NCBI GenBank assembly: GCA_964508365.1
Contig: CAZDTP010000013.1
Coordinates: 1,669-65,668, forward strand
Reading direction: 5' to 3'
DNA length: 64,000 nucleotides
Source of the DNA: an uncultured archaeon
GTDB taxonomy: Archaea; Asgardarchaeota; Lokiarchaeia; Sigyniarchaeales; SOKP01
The notes below the pieces were generated by a model that was not told where the DNA came from, made no database searches, and saw nothing but the letters and a program-made list of their open reading frames with translations. The position numbers were made by a program, and so were the translations under genes. Each line of letters opens with the position of its first letter. Position 1 is the first letter of the stretch. This document shows, in pieces, positions 6,371-14,595 of this stretch.

Positions 6371-7111
6371 ATGTCAAATGAAGAACCTCAAAAGAGTAAT
6401 GGCAAGGACAACGAAGACCTTCCTCGAAGAAAGGTTCAAACAATTACGGTATATCAGTTCAACGATGAAGTAGGAGATTTCGAAGAACTCATTATGGATC
6501 CTGATATAAAATTGCATGATTTATTGGATGATGATTTTATCCTTTTGTTTGTTGATCCCCAGCATAATAGAGTTTGGTTGTGGCATGGACATAACACGAC
6601 AACTCGAATGAAATTCATCGCAGCAAAAACAGCACCTTCAATTCGGGACAAACACGGTATTGCTTTTAAGCTCACAGCAGTTAACCAAGACGACGAGTCC
6701 CAAGGCTTTAAAGTGATGCTTGGTCTAGAGCAAGAATTAGATTACGAAAAAGGTCAAACTGGACCCGCGTATGAAGGTACAAAAGAAGATCTTGAACTTC
6801 TGAAAACTTTATCATTAGAAAAAATACTTCTACTCCTCGAAAAAGCTGGAGTTCCTGAGGGATTGGAGCGAAAAATGGTTATCGTGAAAAATCAAATCTA
6901 TGGATATCGAGAATATGATCGAAATTACTTAGGCTCAGTAATTAAGGAAAAGCAACTTTTCCCTTTAAAAGAAGAAATTGAGGATGGAGCCTATTTGGCA
7001 GATAATTATATCCCTAGAATGCTTTTTTCATATAATAATGTAGTTTTAATAGAATTATTAGAAAAAATCGAAATAGATGATAGTATACAAAAGAAATCAT
7101 TGAAAGATTAG
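6371..7111 (+). CDS. Gelsolin-like domain protein (one gelsolin repeat plus C-terminal extension)
   Basis: LDDDFILLFVD...RVWLWHGHNTTTRMKFIAAKTA matches the gelsolin repeat pattern (xxFILD...I(W/Y)xWxG.....xx.A...A). Confidence 0.7.
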   Translation: MSNEEPQKSNGKDNEDLPRRKVQTITVYQFNDEVGDFEELIMDPDIKLHDLLDDDFILLFVDPQHNRVWLWHGHNTTTRMKFIAAKTAPSIRDKHGIAFKLTAVNQDDESQGFKVMLGLEQELDYEKGQTGPAYEGTKEDLELLKTLSLEKILLLLEKAGVPEGLERKMVIVKNQIYGYREYDRNYLGSVIKEKQLFPLKEEIEDGAYLADNYIPRMLFSYNNVVLIELLEKIEIDDSIQKKSLKD

Positions 7112-8097: not shown

Positions 8098-9624
8098 TTA
8101 TTTTTCTTCTTTAATTTCTATACCATCAGTTAAAGTAACGCTATCAACCATTAATCCTTCTGCTTTTCGGTAATCGTCAAAAGTTCTAGCTTCAACTTTT
8201 TTCATGTATTTCAGGAGCTCATCTTCCACGTTTTTCTCTAATTCGGTAGGGTTGTGTGCTTCAAGAATTTTATCGACTTTTTCTCTGGCTCTTTCAATAA
8301 TATTTTTTGCTCCCTTCTTCTGCCATGTTGAACGCCTGGACCTATCAGCCAATCGTGGCATGTACAATTCTGACTTCATGTGTTTTCGAGTGTGTGGTTC
8401 AGCAAGAAAGTTAACACCTTTTTTATCACTCGTAGCGACTTTTTTGATTACATCTATTGCTATCGTATCATCGTTCACTTTTATTCCTTCCATTGCTCTT
8501 TTTACCATACCAACTAAGTCATCATCAATAACTAAAAGCTCTAAAGCTTCAACTAAAGTTGCTTCGTAAGTACCTGCGCAAGTTATATAGTTTACTCCAG
8601 CTTGAGCAGCGAGCATTAATGTTTGAAATCGTTCATACCCATTTTGTAAATCCAATAATTTAGAATCAGTCCCAGCTCCAGGACCCCGGGATGGGATGTT
8701 GTAAAATCGCGCTAATTGCGCAATTCCAGCTGTAATCAAGCCCATTTCTACAGAACCCATAGCTGAATTCCCTGAACGCATATCTGTAACGTGAGAAACA
8801 GTACCAAAAAAAACTGGCGCCCCTAGATTAAAAATTTGAGATACGACAGCACTACCTACAATTTCAGCGTTTGTTTGTGTTAATAAGCCCGCTAAAGTTA
8901 CCGGTGCTGAGGCTCCTGCTAATGCTTCTGGTGCTATGATTGTTGGTTGTTTGTACTTTGTAAATATCGCAAATCCATTTGTCATGATTTGAGGCAAGTG
9001 AAGAGGGCTGGTAGGATTCATAAAACCTACGAATCTTGGTTTTTCGACTAACTCCTCTTCCCCGCCCACGATAATTGAAGCCATATTCATCATATCCTGC
9101 GAAGCTAATCTCCCTAAGCATCCCAAACCATACGGTTTTTTTGTATTCTTAACCCATTGGTATATACATTGAGAATGAATAGTTATGTAAGACACATCAT
9201 TAGGCCACACATCAACGTGGGAGCACATGATGTTTTCTAAACTATCAACAATTTTAATTTGTTCAATAGTATCTGTTAAAACTGTTTTCCTGACTCCTTT
9301 TTTATTCGTTGGGTCATATATTTTTACGGGTGTTCCGATAGTTGCGAATTGAGTGCTATTTGTATTAACTTCGAACGAGAAAGAACCGTCAGGACCATGT
9401 AGTTTAAATGAATCTGGAACTGTTTTTAGTTGTTCTTTTACTAGCGATTCAGGGAATTTAACAAAGTGAGATGAGTCATCTACCATCGCTCCTTTTTCTT
9501 TTAAGATATCTCTTGTATCTTGAGCATCTACTTTTATACCTACTTCCGATAACAAAGTCATAGACGCAGAATGAATAGCTTCAAGTTCGTCCTTCGAAAA
9601 CACTTCGATTTTTTTTAATTTCAT
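8098..9624 (-). CDS. mttB: MttB-superfamily corrinoid methyltransferase (non-pyrrolysine)
   Basis: IHSASMTLLSEVGIKV N-terminus, GASAPVTLAG, TDSKLLDLQNGYER, LVIDDDL; no in-frame TAG. Confidence 0.9.
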   Translation of the reverse strand: MKLKKIEVFSKDELEAIHSASMTLLSEVGIKVDAQDTRDILKEKGAMVDDSSHFVKFPESLVKEQLKTVPDSFKLHGPDGSFSFEVNTNSTQFATIGTPVKIYDPTNKKGVRKTVLTDTIEQIKIVDSLENIMCSHVDVWPNDVSYITIHSQCIYQWVKNTKKPYGLGCLGRLASQDMMNMASIIVGGEEELVEKPRFVGFMNPTSPLHLPQIMTNGFAIFTKYKQPTIIAPEALAGASAPVTLAGLLTQTNAEIVGSAVVSQIFNLGAPVFFGTVSHVTDMRSGNSAMGSVEMGLITAGIAQLARFYNIPSRGPGAGTDSKLLDLQNGYERFQTLMLAAQAGVNYITCAGTYEATLVEALELLVIDDDLVGMVKRAMEGIKVNDDTIAIDVIKKVATSDKKGVNFLAEPHTRKHMKSELYMPRLADRSRRSTWQKKGAKNIIERAREKVDKILEAHNPTELEKNVEDELLKYMKKVEARTFDDYRKAEGLMVDSVTLTDGIEIKEEK

Positions 9625-9641
9625 TTAATATTCACCATTAT

Positions 9642-10298
9642 TTACATTAGACGTTTTAATAATTCTACAGCTTCAATCGCATCATCAGCCCATCCATCAG
9701 CGCCAATTTTTTTGGCCCAATCCTCCGAAGTAGGAGATCCACCAACGATAACTTTATATTTATCTCTTAACCCTCTCTTCTTAAGCTCTTCTATAACTTG
9801 TTTCTGAAAGTCCATAGACATTGTTAAAAGAGATGATAATCCGATAATATCCGCACCTACTTCTTCTGCTTTTGATATGAATTGATCAGCTGTAACCTCG
9901 ACTCCTAGGTTATATACTTCAAATCCATTCGAAAATAAAAAAGATCCGACCAAATCCTTTCCAATACTATGCACATCACTTTCTACAGTTCCTATAACAA
10001 CTTTTCCCATCGTCTCCTTTTCCTCTCCAGTAGCTCTAATTGCAGGATCTAAAACTTCATCTATCACCACCTTTACAGTTTCAGCAGAGCCAATGAGTTC
10101 TGGAAGAAATATTTCTTCCTGTTCGAATTGATCTCCCACAAATTTCATAATATCTCCTATAATTTTTAATAAATTAGGAGCCGTTGCTTCGTTATTTTTT
10201 AGGATTAATTGACAATATTCTTTCAATCTCTCTGTCTCCCATTCGATGACGAGTTCTTTTATTTTATCTTTAATAGACACTTTCTCTACAACTTGCAA
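9642..10298 (-). CDS. Cognate corrinoid (B12-binding) protein, MttC-like
   Basis: EIFLPELI cap domain; GTVESDVHSIGK (DxHxxG); GLSSLLT; VIVGG. Confidence 0.92.
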   Translation of the reverse strand: MQVVEKVSIKDKIKELVIEWETERLKEYCQLILKNNEATAPNLLKIIGDIMKFVGDQFEQEEIFLPELIGSAETVKVVIDEVLDPAIRATGEEKETMGKVVIGTVESDVHSIGKDLVGSFLFSNGFEVYNLGVEVTADQFISKAEEVGADIIGLSSLLTMSMDFQKQVIEELKKRGLRDKYKVIVGGSPTSEDWAKKIGADGWADDAIEAVELLKRLM

Positions 10299-10407
10299 AT
10301 TATAATTTTTGTATTATGATATAATCATTTGGAAAAAAAGTTTTTCATAAATCATTGGTTTATTATAATAAAATGTTCACCATCTTTAATTTCGGGAATG
10401 TAATAAT

Positions 10408-11916
10408 ATGAAGTTAAGTAAGCTTGAAGTTTTGGAAAAAGAAGAAGTTGAACTCTTCCATGAGAAGACTCTTTATTTATTAGAAAATGTTGGCATTAAG
10501 GTCGAATCTGAAGAAGCTCGTGATCTATTGAAAGATAATGGAGCAGTTGTGGATGAAACTTCTGAAGTCGTAAAGTTTCCTGAGGAGTTAATTATGGAAC
10601 AACTTAAACTTGTTCCGGACAACTTTAGATTGTGGGGTTCTGATGGATCATTCAATTTTGAAGTGAACACAAAAACCACGAATTTTGCTACCGTTGGAAC
10701 TCCTGTAAAGATTTATGACCCAACGAATAAAAAAGGCGTTCGTAAAACTGTTTTAGACGATACTATTAAGCAAATTCGAATTGTAGACACTCTAAAAAAT
10801 ATTGTGTGTTCACATGTTGATGTGTGGCCAAATGATATTCCCTATTTAGAGCTACACTATCACACGATTAAAGCGTGGGCTACTCACAGCACGAAACCTT
10901 ACGGTTTGGGATGTTTGGGTCGAGTAGCCTCCCATGATATGATGAACCTTACCTCTATTATTGTAGGAGGAGAAGAGGAATTAATTAATAAACCCCGTTT
11001 AATAGGGTTTTTTAATCCGGTAAGTCCTTTAATCTTAAATAAGCTCCAACTTAATGGCTTATTTGAATTTGCAAAATATAAACAACCAACAATTATAGCA
11101 CCAGCTGCGAGTGCGGGGGCTACAGCTCCAGTTACGCTAGCAGGGTTACTTATTCAGTCTAATATGGAAACTCTTTCCTCTATCGTTCTAACTCAACTTA
11201 TTAATCCGGGGTGTCCAGTGTTCTATTCGACTATGAACGCCCCGATGGACCCTCCAACGGGAAATGTTGCGTGGGGATCAATTGAAACAGGACTAATCAC
11301 TATTGGTGCAGCTCAACTAGCGCGGTTTTACAACATCCCATCTCGGGGTCCTGGTTTAGTTACTGAGTCGAAATGTTTTGATCTACAAAATGGGTTTGAA
11401 CGGTTTATGACGCTGTTTTGTTCAGCAAACGCCGGGATTAACTATATAACTTGTGCTGGAACTTATGAATCTTCGCTCGCAGAAGCGTTAGAATTATTAG
11501 TTATTGACGATGAGTTGATAGATGTTATAAAAAGAGGATTTGACGGCATAAGAGTTGATGAAGAGAGTATTGCTGTGAAAGAAATAACTAGAGTAGCCAC
11601 TGAGGGGAAGAACTATTTAATGTTAAAACACACCGCAAAAAACACTCGAAAGGAGATATATGTCCCAAAATTAGCGGATCGAGATCGTCGAGGTATCTGG
11701 CAGAAAAATGGTTCAAAGGATATAATAGATAGGGCAAAAGAAAAGGTTGATTCCATACTCGAAACGCAGAAAGGGCCAGGTATATCTAAGGAAATAAATG
11801 ACAAGTTACAAAATTACTATAAGATAATATCTGCGCGCAGTTACGATGATTTTCGTAAAGCTGAAGGAATGAATGGAGCTACTGCCCCAAAAATAATTAA
11901 TGGATTGGAGGAATGA
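10408..11916 (+). CDS. mttB: MttB-superfamily corrinoid methyltransferase (non-pyrrolysine), paralog 2
   Basis: Same family motifs as 8098-9624; shares the near-identical block TIGT/TVGT-PVKIYDPTNKKGVRKTVL and CSHVDVWPND. Confidence 0.9.
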   Translation: MKLSKLEVLEKEEVELFHEKTLYLLENVGIKVESEEARDLLKDNGAVVDETSEVVKFPEELIMEQLKLVPDNFRLWGSDGSFNFEVNTKTTNFATVGTPVKIYDPTNKKGVRKTVLDDTIKQIRIVDTLKNIVCSHVDVWPNDIPYLELHYHTIKAWATHSTKPYGLGCLGRVASHDMMNLTSIIVGGEEELINKPRLIGFFNPVSPLILNKLQLNGLFEFAKYKQPTIIAPAASAGATAPVTLAGLLIQSNMETLSSIVLTQLINPGCPVFYSTMNAPMDPPTGNVAWGSIETGLITIGAAQLARFYNIPSRGPGLVTESKCFDLQNGFERFMTLFCSANAGINYITCAGTYESSLAEALELLVIDDELIDVIKRGFDGIRVDEESIAVKEITRVATEGKNYLMLKHTAKNTRKEIYVPKLADRDRRGIWQKNGSKDIIDRAKEKVDSILETQKGPGISKEINDKLQNYYKIISARSYDDFRKAEGMNGATAPKIINGLEE

Positions 11917-11919
11917 ATA

Positions 11920-13203
11920 ATGAATGACGAGAATAGACAAAAAACAATGGATCAAAAAAATAAAGAATTACGAGAAAAATGGGATAAATTACATTTTGAT
12001 TCTCAACAGGGAAGAGCTGGTGAAGACCCATACCCTACTGCATCTGGAAGCTTAAGAATCCCATTATATGCAACAAAATCATATGCGTATTCTTCGTTAA
12101 CAGAATTATTAAAGAATCATTACTATTACTCGAGGACAGAAAATCCAACATTATATGCTTTAGATCAGAAGCTTGCTACTCTTCACGGTGGAGAATCAGC
12201 AGTGTCTGTAGCCTCAGGTATGGCTGCAGTACATTTAGCATGCTCAAGTGTATTGCAACAACGCGTAGAGAGAGCTAGACCAAAAAAATTAAAAGCTTTA
12301 TTACCTCAAACCAATCCCGATTGCATTCCAAATGTAATTATTCATAATAATCAATACACAGGAGTGTATCGATTGTTGACAAAAATCTATCCACAAATCG
12401 GAGTAATGACTAAAATTGTTGATCTAAGAGATCTAACAGAATTAAAAAACGCTATTGATGAAAATACAAAATTAATTTTTGTAGAAACTCCCTCTAATCC
12501 AAATTTAGATGTATTAGACATTCAAAGATGCGCTGATCTAATTCACGAAGTAAATGGAAAATGTATCGTTGATAATACATTTGCGTCTCCAGCGTTACAA
12601 AAACCATTGAATTTCGGAGCTGATTTAGTAGTAGAAAGTTTAACGAAATATGTCAATGGACACGGCGATACGTTAGGTGGTGTGATCATCGGTCCAAAAA
12701 TAGAATTGCAAAATATTAGATATTTTTGGTTAGAAACGCAAGGAGCAGTGATGAATCCCTTTAGTGCTTGGCTTATCTTAAGGGGTTGTAGAACGCTTAG
12801 TTTAAGGATGGAGCGTCATTGTTCAAACGCATTAAAAATAGCCAATTATTTAAAATCACATCCAAAAGTAGCAAAAGTGATATATCCCGGTTTAAAATCT
12901 CACCCAAACCATGAAGTTGCTAAAAAGCAAATGAAAGCATTCGGAGGTATGATTGGTTTCGAATTGAAGTCAGTAGAGAGCTGTTACAAATTCATAGATT
13001 TATTAAAACTAATTAAGGTTGGTGTTTCCCTCGGAGATACTACATCTTTAATTGAATATACATCAGTTATGACTGGAATCGATCTCGCTTCGTGGGAAAA
13101 ACGGAGAATGAACATATCAGACACACATTTCCGATTTTCAATAGGTTTAGAATATCCTGATGACTTAATTAATGATTTAGAACAAGCATTAAAAAAAATA
13201 TAA
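11920..13203 (+). CDS. PLP-dependent Cys/Met metabolism enzyme (cystathionine/methionine gamma-lyase family), divergent
   Basis: YSRTENPT, ASGMAA, ETPSNP, DNTFASP, SLTKYVNGHGD (PLP lysine), SLG, FRFSIGLE. Confidence 0.9.
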   Translation: MNDENRQKTMDQKNKELREKWDKLHFDSQQGRAGEDPYPTASGSLRIPLYATKSYAYSSLTELLKNHYYYSRTENPTLYALDQKLATLHGGESAVSVASGMAAVHLACSSVLQQRVERARPKKLKALLPQTNPDCIPNVIIHNNQYTGVYRLLTKIYPQIGVMTKIVDLRDLTELKNAIDENTKLIFVETPSNPNLDVLDIQRCADLIHEVNGKCIVDNTFASPALQKPLNFGADLVVESLTKYVNGHGDTLGGVIIGPKIELQNIRYFWLETQGAVMNPFSAWLILRGCRTLSLRMERHCSNALKIANYLKSHPKVAKVIYPGLKSHPNHEVAKKQMKAFGGMIGFELKSVESCYKFIDLLKLIKVGVSLGDTTSLIEYTSVMTGIDLASWEKRRMNISDTHFRFSIGLEYPDDLINDLEQALKKI

Positions 13204-13218
13204 AAAAAAAGAAATAAA

Positions 13219-14595
13219 TTAAGAAGACCTTACTTTCTCCATTTTATCTTTATGTAATTCGGCAAGTTTTTCTTTCATTTCTAATACTTTCTTCTTTGAG
13301 AAGGGATAGAAATATAGACAAACTAAGGAAATTCCTAAAGCAATTGCAGGTATAATTACAAATAAAAATCTTAATCCAAATATCACATCAACTCCCGGAT
13401 TTGGAACATATTCTTCCCAACCAGTTTCAGTGAAGACAAGACTTATAGTTGTAATTGAAAGAACCATTGAAAGTCGCATAAAGAAATTAGCAATACCAAA
13501 AAAACTTCCCTCTCTTCTGACACCTGTTTTTAACTCGTCGTCGTCGACGCAATCTGCAACGATGTACCAGATAAAGTATAACATTCCTCCAAAACCGATC
13601 CCCATTAATATTACTACTATAATTGCAGGCATATACGAAGATATAAAGAGCATAGGGATGGTTGCTATCACATAGGCGATTATCGAGAGTCCATATCCTA
13701 GTCTTCCCCCTATTTTAACATCTATTTTTTTCCATAGAAACATTGACACAATCCCAACGATATACAATAATCCCATGAGGATTGAAGTTTCGAATGCTGA
13801 AGTAGTTCCAAGGACTTCTGCAGAGAAAAGTGGAACGATAGTAGCGAGCAACAATAGGATATACTCATATAGGAAGAACATTATAATGTAGAGCACGAAT
13901 CCTTTGTTTTTAAAGGTGTGTTTTAAAGATTGGAAGTAACTAAACCCTTGTTGGTAGTCTAATTTAAATTCTTCTCTTTCTACTGCACCCCATTTAAGGA
14001 AGACTAACAGTGCTACTCCAACGATTATAGCAGTAACAATCCCGTTCATCAAATACCCATCTCTAGTGGTCTGATCTCCGATAAAAATACCTGGAACGAG
14101 TGCTGCTAAAATTAAACCGATAGCCGCTAAGATTTGCCGTATTGTGTTAACTTGGGTTCTTTCTTCAACTGTAGTATACAATTCTGGAAATAAGGAATCG
14201 GTAGGAAGTGCAATAAGAGTATAAGCAGTATCGTATATTAATAACATAATCAGTAAATAGAAGAATTGTGCCATTTCACCACTAAAAGGTGGTAGCCAGA
14301 TTAAAATCTCTAAAACTAAAACGGGGATTAGCCCGACCATAATATAGATTCTTCTTCGACCCCATCTAGAATGCGTTCTGTCGGAAAGGTATCCTATTAA
14401 TGGATCATTAACTGCATTCCAAATTGTCCAAATAATGAACGCTCCTCTAATCAAGTTCACATCTAACTTTACTGCAGCAAAATAAAAAGTAAATACCCAC
14501 AGGTTAAAAGCACTGTTTATAAACCATTCTACGCCATTTCCTAAAGAAAAACTCCATTTTTGACCTTTACTAAATCGTGTACTCATTTGAAACAA
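13219..14595 (-). CDS. MFS transporter, glycoside-pentoside-hexuronide (MelB/GPH) family
   Basis: WNAVNDPLIGYLSDRTHSRWGRRR, ADCVDDDELKTGVRREG, about 12 TM. Confidence 0.9.
   Translation of the reverse strand: MFQMSTRFSKGQKWSFSLGNGVEWFINSAFNLWVFTFYFAAVKLDVNLIRGAFIIWTIWNAVNDPLIGYLSDRTHSRWGRRRIYIMVGLIPVLVLEILIWLPPFSGEMAQFFYLLIMLLIYDTAYTLIALPTDSLFPELYTTVEERTQVNTIRQILAAIGLILAALVPGIFIGDQTTRDGYLMNGIVTAIIVGVALLVFLKWGAVEREEFKLDYQQGFSYFQSLKHTFKNKGFVLYIIMFFLYEYILLLLATIVPLFSAEVLGTTSAFETSILMGLLYIVGIVSMFLWKKIDVKIGGRLGYGLSIIAYVIATIPMLFISSYMPAIIVVILMGIGFGGMLYFIWYIVADCVDDDELKTGVRREGSFFGIANFFMRLSMVLSITTISLVFTETGWEEYVPNPGVDVIFGLRFLFVIIPAIALGISLVCLYFYPFSKKKVLEMKEKLAELHKDKMEKVRSS

Follow-up and report, generated by a model that had tools for sequence, protein, structure and literature searches.

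To our knowledge, the very large superfamily of MttB methyltransferases without pyrrolysine (non-Pyl MttB) has only about six known substrates, all of them quaternary amines, and we know of no characterised member of the MttB superfamily that acts on a sulfonium compound or a thioether. The closest described relatives of the locus reported here are the glycine betaine:tetrahydrofolate system MtgB/MtgC/MtgA of Desulfitobacterium hafniense (PDB 2QNE, 9YCE), in which Arg312 of MtgB binds the substrate carboxylate (PMC13080624), and the Pyl-dependent trimethylamine system MttB/MttC of Methanosarcina barkeri (7XCL, 7XCN). An MttB-type methyl donor and a corrinoid protein are tied to sulfur amino-acid metabolism in the split methionine synthase/MtgBCDE of Ruegeria pomeroyi and Phaeobacter inhibens, where the corrinoid protein is common to betaine demethylation and methionine synthesis (PMC12478193). 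For the other two kinds of protein encoded at the locus, the nearest described counterparts are the PLP-dependent methionine gamma-lyase (MGL) of Citrobacter freundii (2RFV) and two transporters with the MFS_2 fold, namely MFSD2A, which is sodium-dependent and carries a trimethylammonium head group, and the melibiose permease MelB.

Here we describe a five-gene cassette that shares with the MtgB system a non-Pyl MttB TIM barrel, a small corrinoid partner with a DxHxxG motif, the counterpart of Arg312 and a RamA-type activase. Unlike the MtgB system, the cluster has no MtgA-type gene and includes an MFS_2 transporter, presumed to be the substrate importer, and a dedicated PLP enzyme of the gamma family. 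The association of an MttB-type donor and a corrinoid protein with sulfur amino-acid metabolism recalls MtgBCDE, but the cassette lacks a homocysteine- or pterin-binding subunit and has a PLP enzyme of lyase type as partner in place of a methyl acceptor module. With a probability of roughly 55%, we consider the genes to form an accessory cassette for uptake and catabolism of an onium, amino-acid-like substrate in one Loki-type Asgard family.

Organisation of the locus

The cassette lies in a stretch of 64,000 nucleotides, which is referred to below as the window. The stretch is contained in salt-marsh metagenomes and its host is a Loki-type Asgard archaeon; a search of sequencing runs gave no RNA run matching it. 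The open reading frames and Pfam matches bore out the gene content and layout that a preliminary description had given for positions 8098–14595. On the minus strand, the gene for the first methyltransferase, MttB-A (8098–9624, 508 aa), has the corrinoid protein gene (9642–10298, 218 aa, TTG start) 17 nt upstream of it on the same strand. A divergent, AT-rich intergenic gap of exactly 109 nt (10299–10407) separates this pair from the plus-strand genes for the second methyltransferase, MttB-B (10408–11916, 502 aa), and the PLP enzyme (11920–13203, 427 aa), the latter starting 3 nt past the MttB-B stop. The MFS_2/GPH transporter gene (13219–14595, minus strand) is convergent with the PLP gene and lies 15 nt from its stop.

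The 109-nt gap probably serves both transcription units as their promoter region. It contains a AAAAAGTTT(T/A)TC element that recurs in the majority of the orthologous intergenic regions, irrespective of layout. With 17 copies in the whole genome and no enrichment at the other methyltransferase loci, this element has the look of a generic promoter element.

The corrinoid protein is the cognate B12 carrier. It matches the Rossmann B12-binding domain (PF02310, 91 bits) and the helical cap (PF02607, 38 bits), and its translation contains the DxHxxG motif (ESDVHSIGKD) of methylotrophic carriers of the MtgC/MttC/MtbC type, while its best NCBIfam match, MtgC (NF047995), scores 188.8 bits and thus stays below the cut-off of 310. 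With regard to the transporter, PF13347 scores 211 bits and TIGR00792 158 bits (cut-off 231), and among solved structures the MFSD2A lysophosphatidylcholine symporters come nearest (82 bits), followed by MelB (60 bits). The transporter gene was found at every locus that extends far enough; however, because the genome contains about 27 MFS_2 paralogs, the adjacency of a single transporter is weak evidence.

The two MttB proteins

MttB-A and MttB-B are 60% identical to each other and match PF06253 over their full length with 353 and 321 bits, respectively (cut-off 25), placing both in the MttB superfamily. The only NCBIfam MttB model matched, TIGR02369, scores 422 for A and 371 for B, below its cut-off of 525 in both cases. 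An AF2 model of MttB-A (pLDDT 82) has the predicted TIM-barrel fold of both MtgB (9YCE; TM 0.83–0.84) and M. barkeri MttB (7XCL; TM 0.83–0.85).

By eye, the position equivalent to pyrrolysine had earlier been placed within GPGAGTDSK of A and GPGLVTESK of B, with TAG in neither. Alignment to M. barkeri MttB (7XCL, '...AGSXSDAK') confirmed this estimate: opposite Pyl334, A has Gly and B has Val. Both MttB genes are uninterrupted open reading frames and therefore contain no in-frame TAG or other internal stop, and together with the residues at the Pyl position and the TIGR02369 scores this led us to reject a Pyl-dependent identity. Among orthologs the position is variable in clade A and Val throughout clade B; hence it is not clade-defining.

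The active-site signatures set both proteins apart from their characterised relatives. Identity is about 32% to MtgB and about 33% to Pyl-MttB for A and B alike. Gly110-Thr111 of M. barkeri MttB is kept as the invariant Gly97-Thr98, whereas the Tyr364 position is Thr or Cys and an Arg stands in place of Tyr329. Arg313, which equals MtgB Arg312, is invariant in both clades. In contrast, the cation-pi pair Tyr97/Phe356 and His348 of MtgB are not kept: the residue opposite Tyr97 is Gly or else Ile/Val, according to the aligner used, Phe356 is matched by Thr in A and by Ser in B, and His348 falls opposite a gap adjoining Cys349. Clade A has an invariant Glu233 at an active-site position (that of MttB Met249), and clade B combines Arg313 with Ala233, a Met-rich set (Met253, Met276 and Met280) and an invariant Cys323. 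Moreover, the two clades share the invariant residues Cys134, His136, Cys169 and Cys349, which are absent from MtgB and MttB. The compared active-site residues, Glu233 and Arg313 among them, are predicted by the model to sit at the C-terminal ends of the barrel strands. Judged by their sequences, A and B form a distinct non-Pyl MttB clade relative to MtgB and Pyl-MttB, the two enzymes that the comparison covered (NCBIfam has no models for the Eubacterium limosum enzymes MtcB, MtpB, MtyB and MthB, which are characterised for carnitine, proline betaine, butyrobetaine and phosphocholine). The low identity to MtgB and the absence of its aromatic pair and His348 uphold the distinctness from the betaine enzyme on which the original proposal of a new substrate had depended.

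The PLP enzyme

The PLP enzyme belongs to the gamma family of Cys/Met metabolism (PF01053, 400 bits) and is the sole Cys_Met_Meta_PP member in the genome. Its best PDB match is C. freundii MGL (2RFV, 305 bits, about 39% identity), with which it shares the gamma-family catalytic set, aligned and invariant: the PLP lysine (Lys210), Tyr113, Asp185, Arg374 and Tyr58/Arg60 of the Y-x-R loop. Residues specific to MGL are nevertheless missing, as YTG stands for YGC (Cys115 to Gly) and 'LE-T' for 'LKDI' (Lys239/Asp240 to Glu plus a gap). The enzyme also differs from MGL in having 'ES' for 'HS' before the PLP lysine, YTSVMTG for HPAxMTH and a clade-specific 21-aa insertion ahead of the catalytic Tyr. 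It reaches none of the NCBIfam cut-offs, neither that of the top match PRK07811 (CGS; 371 against 513) nor that of TIGR01328 (MGL; 350 against 550).

In the phylogenetic tree the PLP clade received 100% support on a stem of 1.31 substitutions per site, as sister to other Asgard PLP enzymes. It falls on the MGL (non-Glu339) side and is split from the Glu339 clade of CGS/CGL with 98% support; as in MGL, the Glu339-type A-E-S-L-G-G of cystathionine enzymes is replaced, here by G-V-S-L-G-D. Given the lack of the Glu339 motif, the separation in the tree and the sub-threshold PRK07811 score, identity as a cystathionine gamma-synthase or gamma-lyase was rejected. The earlier assignment to the gamma-lyase family is thus retained as far as PF01053 and the MGL-side branch are concerned, but does not extend to Cys115 and Lys239/Asp240 of MGL or to the curated cut-offs. 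The sequence points to a divergent MGL-side branch for which gamma-elimination, as opposed to gamma-replacement, is the putative reaction.

Conservation and distribution of the cassette

At all 34 Asgard loci that encode the PLP protein and have flanking DNA, the PLP gene (orthologs 61–93% identical) lies beside the corrinoid protein/MttB-A genes. Three layouts occur. In each, MttB-A and the corrinoid protein gene point away from the remaining genes and the GPH transporter gene is convergent at the far end; between them stand MttB-B followed by the PLP gene, the PLP gene followed by MttB-B, or the PLP gene alone. MttB-A is therefore the universal member, present in all three layouts and always adjoining the corrinoid gene. 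MttB-B is optional, directly precedes or follows the PLP gene whenever present, and splits into a pre-PLP and a post-PLP subclade. Because about one quarter of the loci lack MttB-B, stepwise demethylation by two MttBs, as originally envisaged, cannot be the general scheme.

Of the 135 genomes in GTDB family f1, about 72 have a PLP ortholog, and, contig-edge cases aside, MttB-A/B are found in the same ones. The cassette is accessory, several 98–100% complete genomes of the same genus being without it. Orthologous cassettes are limited to f1 and one neighbouring family, and bacterial PLP homologs (at most 42% identity) have no MttB nearby. In the sister family f3 the five genes are kept at 51–63% identity and the flanking genes of f1 are absent. 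In family f16, an ortholog of the GPH transporter (61–63%) is convergent with another MttB type, MttB-X, in all seven genomes, and an MGL-like PLP gene of the same Asgard clade lies 1–3.4 kb away in five of them; MttB-X is 29–30% identical to A, yet has the Glu233 and Arg313 of A. The preliminary description had made much of the MttB-lyase linkage and asked whether it recurs; it does so at all Asgard PLP-ortholog loci, in three gene orders, with other flanks in f3 and with near-perfect co-occurrence.

Within f1, synteny extends to neighbours that are clearly unrelated, namely a gelsolin-like ORF, two 7TM proteins and a VTT/DedA protein, and some of the conservation is therefore due to relatedness. 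This synteny and the restriction to one or two families would be expected if the MttBs carried out ordinary quaternary-amine (betaine-type) demethylation beside a functionally unrelated PLP gene kept through inherited gene order only, and the quaternary-amine substrates of all characterised non-Pyl MttBs, with Arg312 conserved there as here, are in line with it. We consider this explanation improbable, since the adjacency has outlasted three rearranged layouts and the changed flanks in f3, PLP and MttB-A are present or missing together throughout the 135 genomes, the PLP clade is highly derived and confined to the cassette context, only 3 nt separate MttB-B from the PLP gene, and f16 has a similar GPH-MttB-PLP neighbourhood built around a different MttB type.

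Partners encoded elsewhere

The preliminary description had noted that the window holds no MtaA-type second methyltransferase or RamA activase, and the contig indeed has no URO-D/MtaA-, MtrH- or RamA-type gene; the cassette thus has no gene of its own for a second methyltransferase (MT2). Other contigs encode one RamA-type activase, 15 URO-D/MtaA-like, 4 MtrH-like and 2 pterin-binding proteins. Contig C36 carries a row of genes for a corrinoid protein, a homocysteine S-methyltransferase (the only PF02574 member in the genome) and an MttB, and on it a GDSL lipase gene adjoins an MttB gene other than those of the cassette.

The row on C36 would suit a role in methionine biosynthesis or salvage, in which an imported donor would supply the methyl groups that the MttBs load onto the corrinoid protein, the PLP enzyme (of sulfhydrylase, gamma-synthase or beta-lyase type) would make homocysteine and the homocysteine methyltransferase would convert it to methionine, much as in a split MetH or Ruegeria MtgBCDE with its shared corrinoid protein. 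The status of the PLP gene as the genome's sole Cys/Met-family gene and the rank of the CGS model at the top of its NCBIfam matches, though under cut-off, also fit. Such a role is unlikely, however, given that the homocysteine methyltransferase and the cassette are independently distributed in f1: many genomes have the former without the latter, and genera g7 and g13 the reverse. Moreover, the cassette is accessory, with its own importer and no homoserine-activating gene, and its PLP clade falls on the side of MGL and apart from the Glu339 clade of CGS/CGL.

Proposed pathway

We infer a catabolic direction, an order of steps and a substrate as follows. The MFS_2 transporter would import a methylated onium compound that has a carboxylate and, probably, an alpha-amino group that is free or can be unmasked. 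MttB-A would pass one methyl group on to the neighbouring corrinoid protein in its Co(I) state, and MttB-B, where present, may obtain a methyl group from an intermediate of the pathway or from a second substrate that is less polar. A methyltransferase encoded elsewhere, for which the MtrH-like and URO-D/MtaA-like proteins are candidates, would unload the methyl-corrinoid into C1 metabolism, and the single RamA-type activase would re-reduce the carrier. Finally, the methionine-lyase-like PLP enzyme would act on the demethylated C4 amino-acid skeleton and split it, through gamma-elimination, into 2-oxobutyrate, ammonia and a leaving group.

As to the substrate, our guess is that S-methylmethionine is the most economical candidate, because one demethylation yields methionine, a gamma-lyase substrate, and because a supply is plausible near cordgrasses. 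Spartina cordgrasses are described as making DMSP via S-methylmethionine (PMC11464771).

A lipid-derived onium head group, such as that of DGTS (trimethylhomoserine) or of a lyso-lipid, could also be imported by an MFSD2A-like route, N-demethylated by the MttBs and subjected to gamma-elimination as an O-substituted homoserine. This PLP family has O-substituted homoserines among its standard substrates, MFSD2A symporters are the nearest solved relatives of the transporter, an alpha/beta hydrolase and the VTT/DedA membrane protein are encoded upstream in most f1 loci, and the lipase on C36 adjoins an MttB. We nevertheless think this very unlikely: the PLP chemistry requires a primary amine and hence three demethylations, whereas known non-Pyl MttBs take the first methyl only and many loci have a single MttB; furthermore, the hydrolase and VTT genes are absent in f3 and f16, and the transporter resembles MFSD2A only weakly (82 bits). 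Equally hard to credit is a lyase-first order, in which the PLP enzyme would free dimethylsulfide from S-methylmethionine or methanethiol from methionine (as gamma-lyases do) and MttB-A/B would demethylate the volatile product, for although two MttBs would fit two successive methyl groups, Methanolobus metatranscriptomes suggest that MttB-type enzymes may handle dimethylsulfide (PMC10762971) and Cys134/His136/Cys169/Cys349 could form a putative thiol-activating metal site, the carboxylate-binding Arg kept in both clades would be superfluous for a volatile sulfide and many loci have one MttB.

Returning to the uptake and catabolism of an onium amino acid, we tentatively advance a more specific and rather doubtful version. 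Clade A and the f16 MttB-X may be the first sulfonium-amino-acid (S-methylmethionine) demethylases of the MttB superfamily, clade B might remove a second S-methyl group, that of methionine or methanethiol, perhaps with the help of the putative clade-specific Cys/His metal site, and the derived gamma-lyase might burn the C4 skeleton, together making up a new corrinoid-dependent route. If true, this would allow Loki-type Asgard archaea to turn organosulfur precursors of plant and algal osmolytes into sulfide, 2-oxobutyrate and C1 units.

Implications

The cassette is a conserved and well-defined case, amenable to testing, of an MttB substrate whose chemistry is constrained by a neighbouring enzyme. 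Since its five proteins are small and soluble or of a standard membrane type, expression and assay are feasible. Asgard physiology is mostly genome-inferred. If the substrate is a sulfonium or other onium amino acid, the reaction scope of corrinoid methyltransferases would be wider, salt-marsh and marine sediments would have an added sink for organosulfur compounds and osmolytes that competes with methylotrophic methanogens, and a concrete substrate could be named for non-methanogenic methylotrophy in Lokiarchaeia.

Gene content and layout

ORF listing and profile searches matched exactly the gene content and layout given in the preliminary description. The window has a G+C content of about 31%, and the cassette in it begins with the genes for MttB-A (8098-9624, minus strand, 508 aa) and, on the same strand, a corrinoid protein (9642-10298) that combines a cap and a Rossmann domain and carries a DVHSIG motif. 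An AT-rich intergenic gap of 109 nt (10299-10407) leads to two divergent genes on the plus strand, which encode MttB-B (10408-11916, 502 aa) and, 3 nt past it, a PLP enzyme of Cys/Met metabolism (11920-13203). On these the gene for an MFS_2/GPH transporter (13219-14595, minus strand) converges. MttB-A and MttB-B share 60% identity. An MttB-B::PLP fusion, suggested by a 934-aa open frame for one MttB-B in the genome search, was rejected because a TAA stop stands between the two genes in the DNA.

The element AAAAAGTTT(T/A)TC is kept in the divergent gap (10299-10407 in the window, and the orthologous gaps) across all three layouts, despite diverged surroundings. The genome-wide count of the intergenic element, 17, is near chance. 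As a regulon mark of methyltransferase loci, AAAAAGTTTWTC was rejected, none of its 17 matches genome-wide being at other such loci. A 246-aa ORF at 6371-7111 has no Pfam match and a centre that is gelsolin/cofilin-like by eye. Its synteny with the cassette extends all through f1, the GTDB family to which the window belongs, and the two are probably unrelated.

Conservation and linkage of the cassette

A linkage search with the PLP protein, using one genome per species, recovered 34 loci from Asgard genomes with 67-93% identity, followed by an abrupt fall to bacterial homologs at no more than 42%. The association of MttB and lyase genes first noticed in the window recurs in other genomes: wherever the flanks of an Asgard locus were long enough, the PLP gene had the genes for MttB-A and the corrinoid protein as neighbours. 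Near the bacterial PLP homologs, an MttB was found at none of 46 loci. Nearly all proteins closely related to MttB-B or to the PLP enzyme came from MAGs labelled Promethearchaeota, Lokiarchaeota or other Asgard names. The stretch was nearly complete in salt-marsh metagenomes and partial in metagenomes from soil, aquatic and marine sediment sources; a search for evidence of expression and operon structure found it in no RNA run. One contig filed as 'Candidatus Nanopelagicaceae bacterium' (L007, DATKTW010000123.1) contains the entire region, with proteins 91-99% identical to those of the window, and is almost certainly mis-binned.

Three gene orders were seen, namely that of the window, one with MttB-B after the PLP gene and one with MttB-B missing. 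In a tree of Asgard MttB paralogs only, for which two further MttBs from the window's genome served as outgroup, MttB-A belonged to a single clade (A), present in all layouts and always adjoining the corrinoid gene, and MttB-B to another (B), with two subclades that correspond to the positions before and after the PLP gene. Tree and gene orders thus indicate that MttB-A, corrinoid protein, PLP enzyme and transporter form a constant core, and that MttB-B is optional and always touches the PLP gene. Two genomes of the window's genus (L005 and L006) have no MttB-B. Their PLP, corrinoid and transporter proteins are 92-93%, 86-88% and about 85% identical to those of the window, but the identity of their MttB-A is no higher than about 65%, and it sits on a long branch (0.42), which suggests that it was replaced or evolved fast following the loss of MttB-B.

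In a set of 400 genomes from the phylum, about 72 of the 135 f1 members and one genome of a neighbouring family have a PLP ortholog (at least 61% identity); two isolated matches elsewhere may be binning errors. The clade A and B MttBs were found in the same genomes, contig-edge cases excepted, and were missing together with the PLP gene from several 98-100% complete genomes of the window's genus. It follows that the cassette is accessory and that its genes come and go together. Since unrelated neighbours (the gelsolin-like ORF, a VTT/DedA protein and two 7TM proteins) are also syntenic inside f1, conservation there is partly mere relatedness; in the neighbouring family the five cassette genes occur at 51-63% identity without the flanking neighbours of f1. 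Extra 'orphan' MttBs of the two clades in other f1 genomes have heterogeneous neighbours (HAD hydrolase, AMP-ligase, DUF362, PmbA/TldD, DUF711, M20 peptidase), and these gave no clear hint of a substrate.

The cassette is limited to one GTDB family and a neighbouring one, and a third family (f16) has a looser analogue, a second case that is independent in part. In 7 of 7 f16 genomes, an ortholog of the window's transporter stands tail-to-tail with a different MttB type, MttB-X. At 61-63% identity this ortholog is far closer than any paralog in the genome of the window, where the best of about 27 reaches 41%. In five of the seven, a gene for a PLP enzyme resembling methionine gamma-lyase (MGL) lies 1-3.4 kb away, and its product belongs in the tree to an Asgard group sister to the window's PLP clade. 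The conserved row (L088 2199-9286; L089, L113-L117) consists of an M48 peptidase, MttB-X, the convergent GPH ortholog, a PHP-domain protein and the MGL-like PLP gene, and no corrinoid gene was found near it.

Properties of MttB-A and MttB-B

Neither MttB gene contains an internal stop, in agreement with their description as non-pyrrolysine enzymes, and alignment placed Gly in A (GPGAGTDSK) and Val in B (GPGLVTESK) at Pyl334 of M. barkeri MttB, as previously estimated by eye. This difference was rejected as a specificity determinant because the position is variable inside clade A. MtgB, the glycine betaine methyltransferase of D. hafniense, and the pyrrolysine-containing trimethylamine enzyme of M. 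barkeri were used, as sequences from PDB alignments, for residue mapping only. Identity of A and B is about 32% with the former and 33% with the latter, and an AF2 model of A (pLDDT 82) fitted both equally well (TM 0.83-0.85).

Four residues of MtgB have been shown by experiment to bind glycine betaine, with Arg312 binding the carboxylate (PMC13080624). Arg312 alone is kept in A and B, whereas Tyr97, Phe356 and His348 are not. Genome surveys describe Asgard MttB homologs as probable quaternary-amine methyltransferases (PMC11291895). An ordinary betaine system with an unrelated PLP neighbour seems an unlikely reading of the cassette.

Thirteen positions are fixed differently between A and B. 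Glu233 is invariant in clade A, where M. barkeri MttB has Met249. In clade B the residue here is Ala, several Met residues occur, and Cys323 is invariant. MttB-X has Glu233 and Arg313 in common with clade A, though only 29-30% identical. We infer that the Arg and Glu pair would fit a zwitterionic, amino-acid-like head group, or would stabilise an onium centre. Moreover, Cys134, His136, Cys169 and Cys349 are invariant or nearly so in A and B but not in MtgB or MttB; further clade-specific cysteines are C323 in B and C153 in A. By secondary-structure placement only, the AF2 model puts the Cys/His and Glu/Arg residues round the mouth of the barrel, where successive strands have their C-terminal ends. 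The Cys/His residues may form a metal-binding or redox site there. We know of no such site in the MttB superfamily.

Properties of the PLP enzyme

The PLP gene is the sole member of its family in the genome. The enzyme retains the Schiff-base Lys, the catalytic Tyr, Asp, Arg and the Tyr-x-Arg loop, and its top solved match is C. freundii MGL (305 bits, with gamma-synthases at about 280). Val-Ser-Leu-Gly-Asp stands where cystathionine enzymes have Glu339, and the tree groups the enzyme with other Asgard enzymes on the MGL side, apart from the Glu339 clade (98% support). In contrast, Cys115 and Lys239/Asp240 of MGL are missing (Glu takes the place of Lys239), the catalytic Tyr is preceded by an insertion of 21 residues, two further conserved motifs differ, the stem branch of the clade measures 1.31 substitutions per site, and the protein reached none of the curated-model cut-offs. 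In these respects it is not a standard MGL.

Partners and transporters

The absence of a second methyltransferase and of an activase, previously noted for the window, extends to the whole contig. Off the contig, the genome encodes one RamA-type activase, 15 URO-D/MtaA-type, four MtrH-type and two pterin-binding proteins; its corrinoid proteins number six and its MttBs four. Genes for methyl transfer and import are greatly expanded in this genome, including about 27 MFS_2/GPH paralogs, several of which adjoin URO-D or corrinoid genes (e.g. contig C23, 44191-47403).

Contig C36 (L094 9737-12751) carries co-oriented genes for a corrinoid protein (215 aa), the genome's only PF02574 homocysteine S-methyltransferase (295 aa) and an MttB of a fourth type (480 aa), a row that looks like a three-part methionine synthase with MttB as methyl donor module; near it are a GDSL lipase, an EamA carrier, a PIG-L deacetylase and an MFS_2 carrier. 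The cassette itself could be a methionine-biosynthetic module, but across f1 the homocysteine S-methyltransferase is distributed independently of the cassette, which counts against a role in methionine synthesis and leaves this reading doubtful. On contig C50 (L093 6780-10632), genes for an MttB (481 aa), a PIG-L/LmbE-family deacetylase (280 aa) and an MFS_2 carrier (464 aa) are co-oriented. With a second pair of PIG-L and MFS_2 genes present on C36, a further methylated substrate seems indicated, which may be an N-acetylated compound or an amino sugar.

The nearest solved relatives of the cassette transporter are MFSD2A lysophosphatidylcholine symporters (82 bits), followed by the sugar carrier MelB (60 bits). 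That the substrate is the head group of a betaine lipid or lyso-lipid nevertheless appears quite improbable. MFS_2 carriers adjoin three of the four MttB genes of the genome, and some lie near URO-D genes; they appear to be the host's usual importers of methylated substrates.

Proposed function

A route in which the lyase acts first, via dimethylsulfide or methanethiol, is very unlikely. No paper in the literature searched mentions Asgard archaea and methionine gamma-lyase together.

The candidate substrate that requires the fewest assumptions is S-methylmethionine, because one demethylation would yield methionine, a gamma-lyase substrate. DMSP in Spartina salt marshes is made via S-methylmethionine (PMC11464771).

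The cassette most likely serves to take up and catabolise a single methylated onium compound with a carboxylate and an amino-acid-like skeleton. MttB-A would load the methyl group onto the corrinoid protein, from which a methyltransferase encoded elsewhere would pass it on to a C1 carrier, and the lyase-like PLP enzyme would cleave the demethylated C4 amino acid to 2-oxobutyrate, with MttB-B as an optional second donor enzyme.
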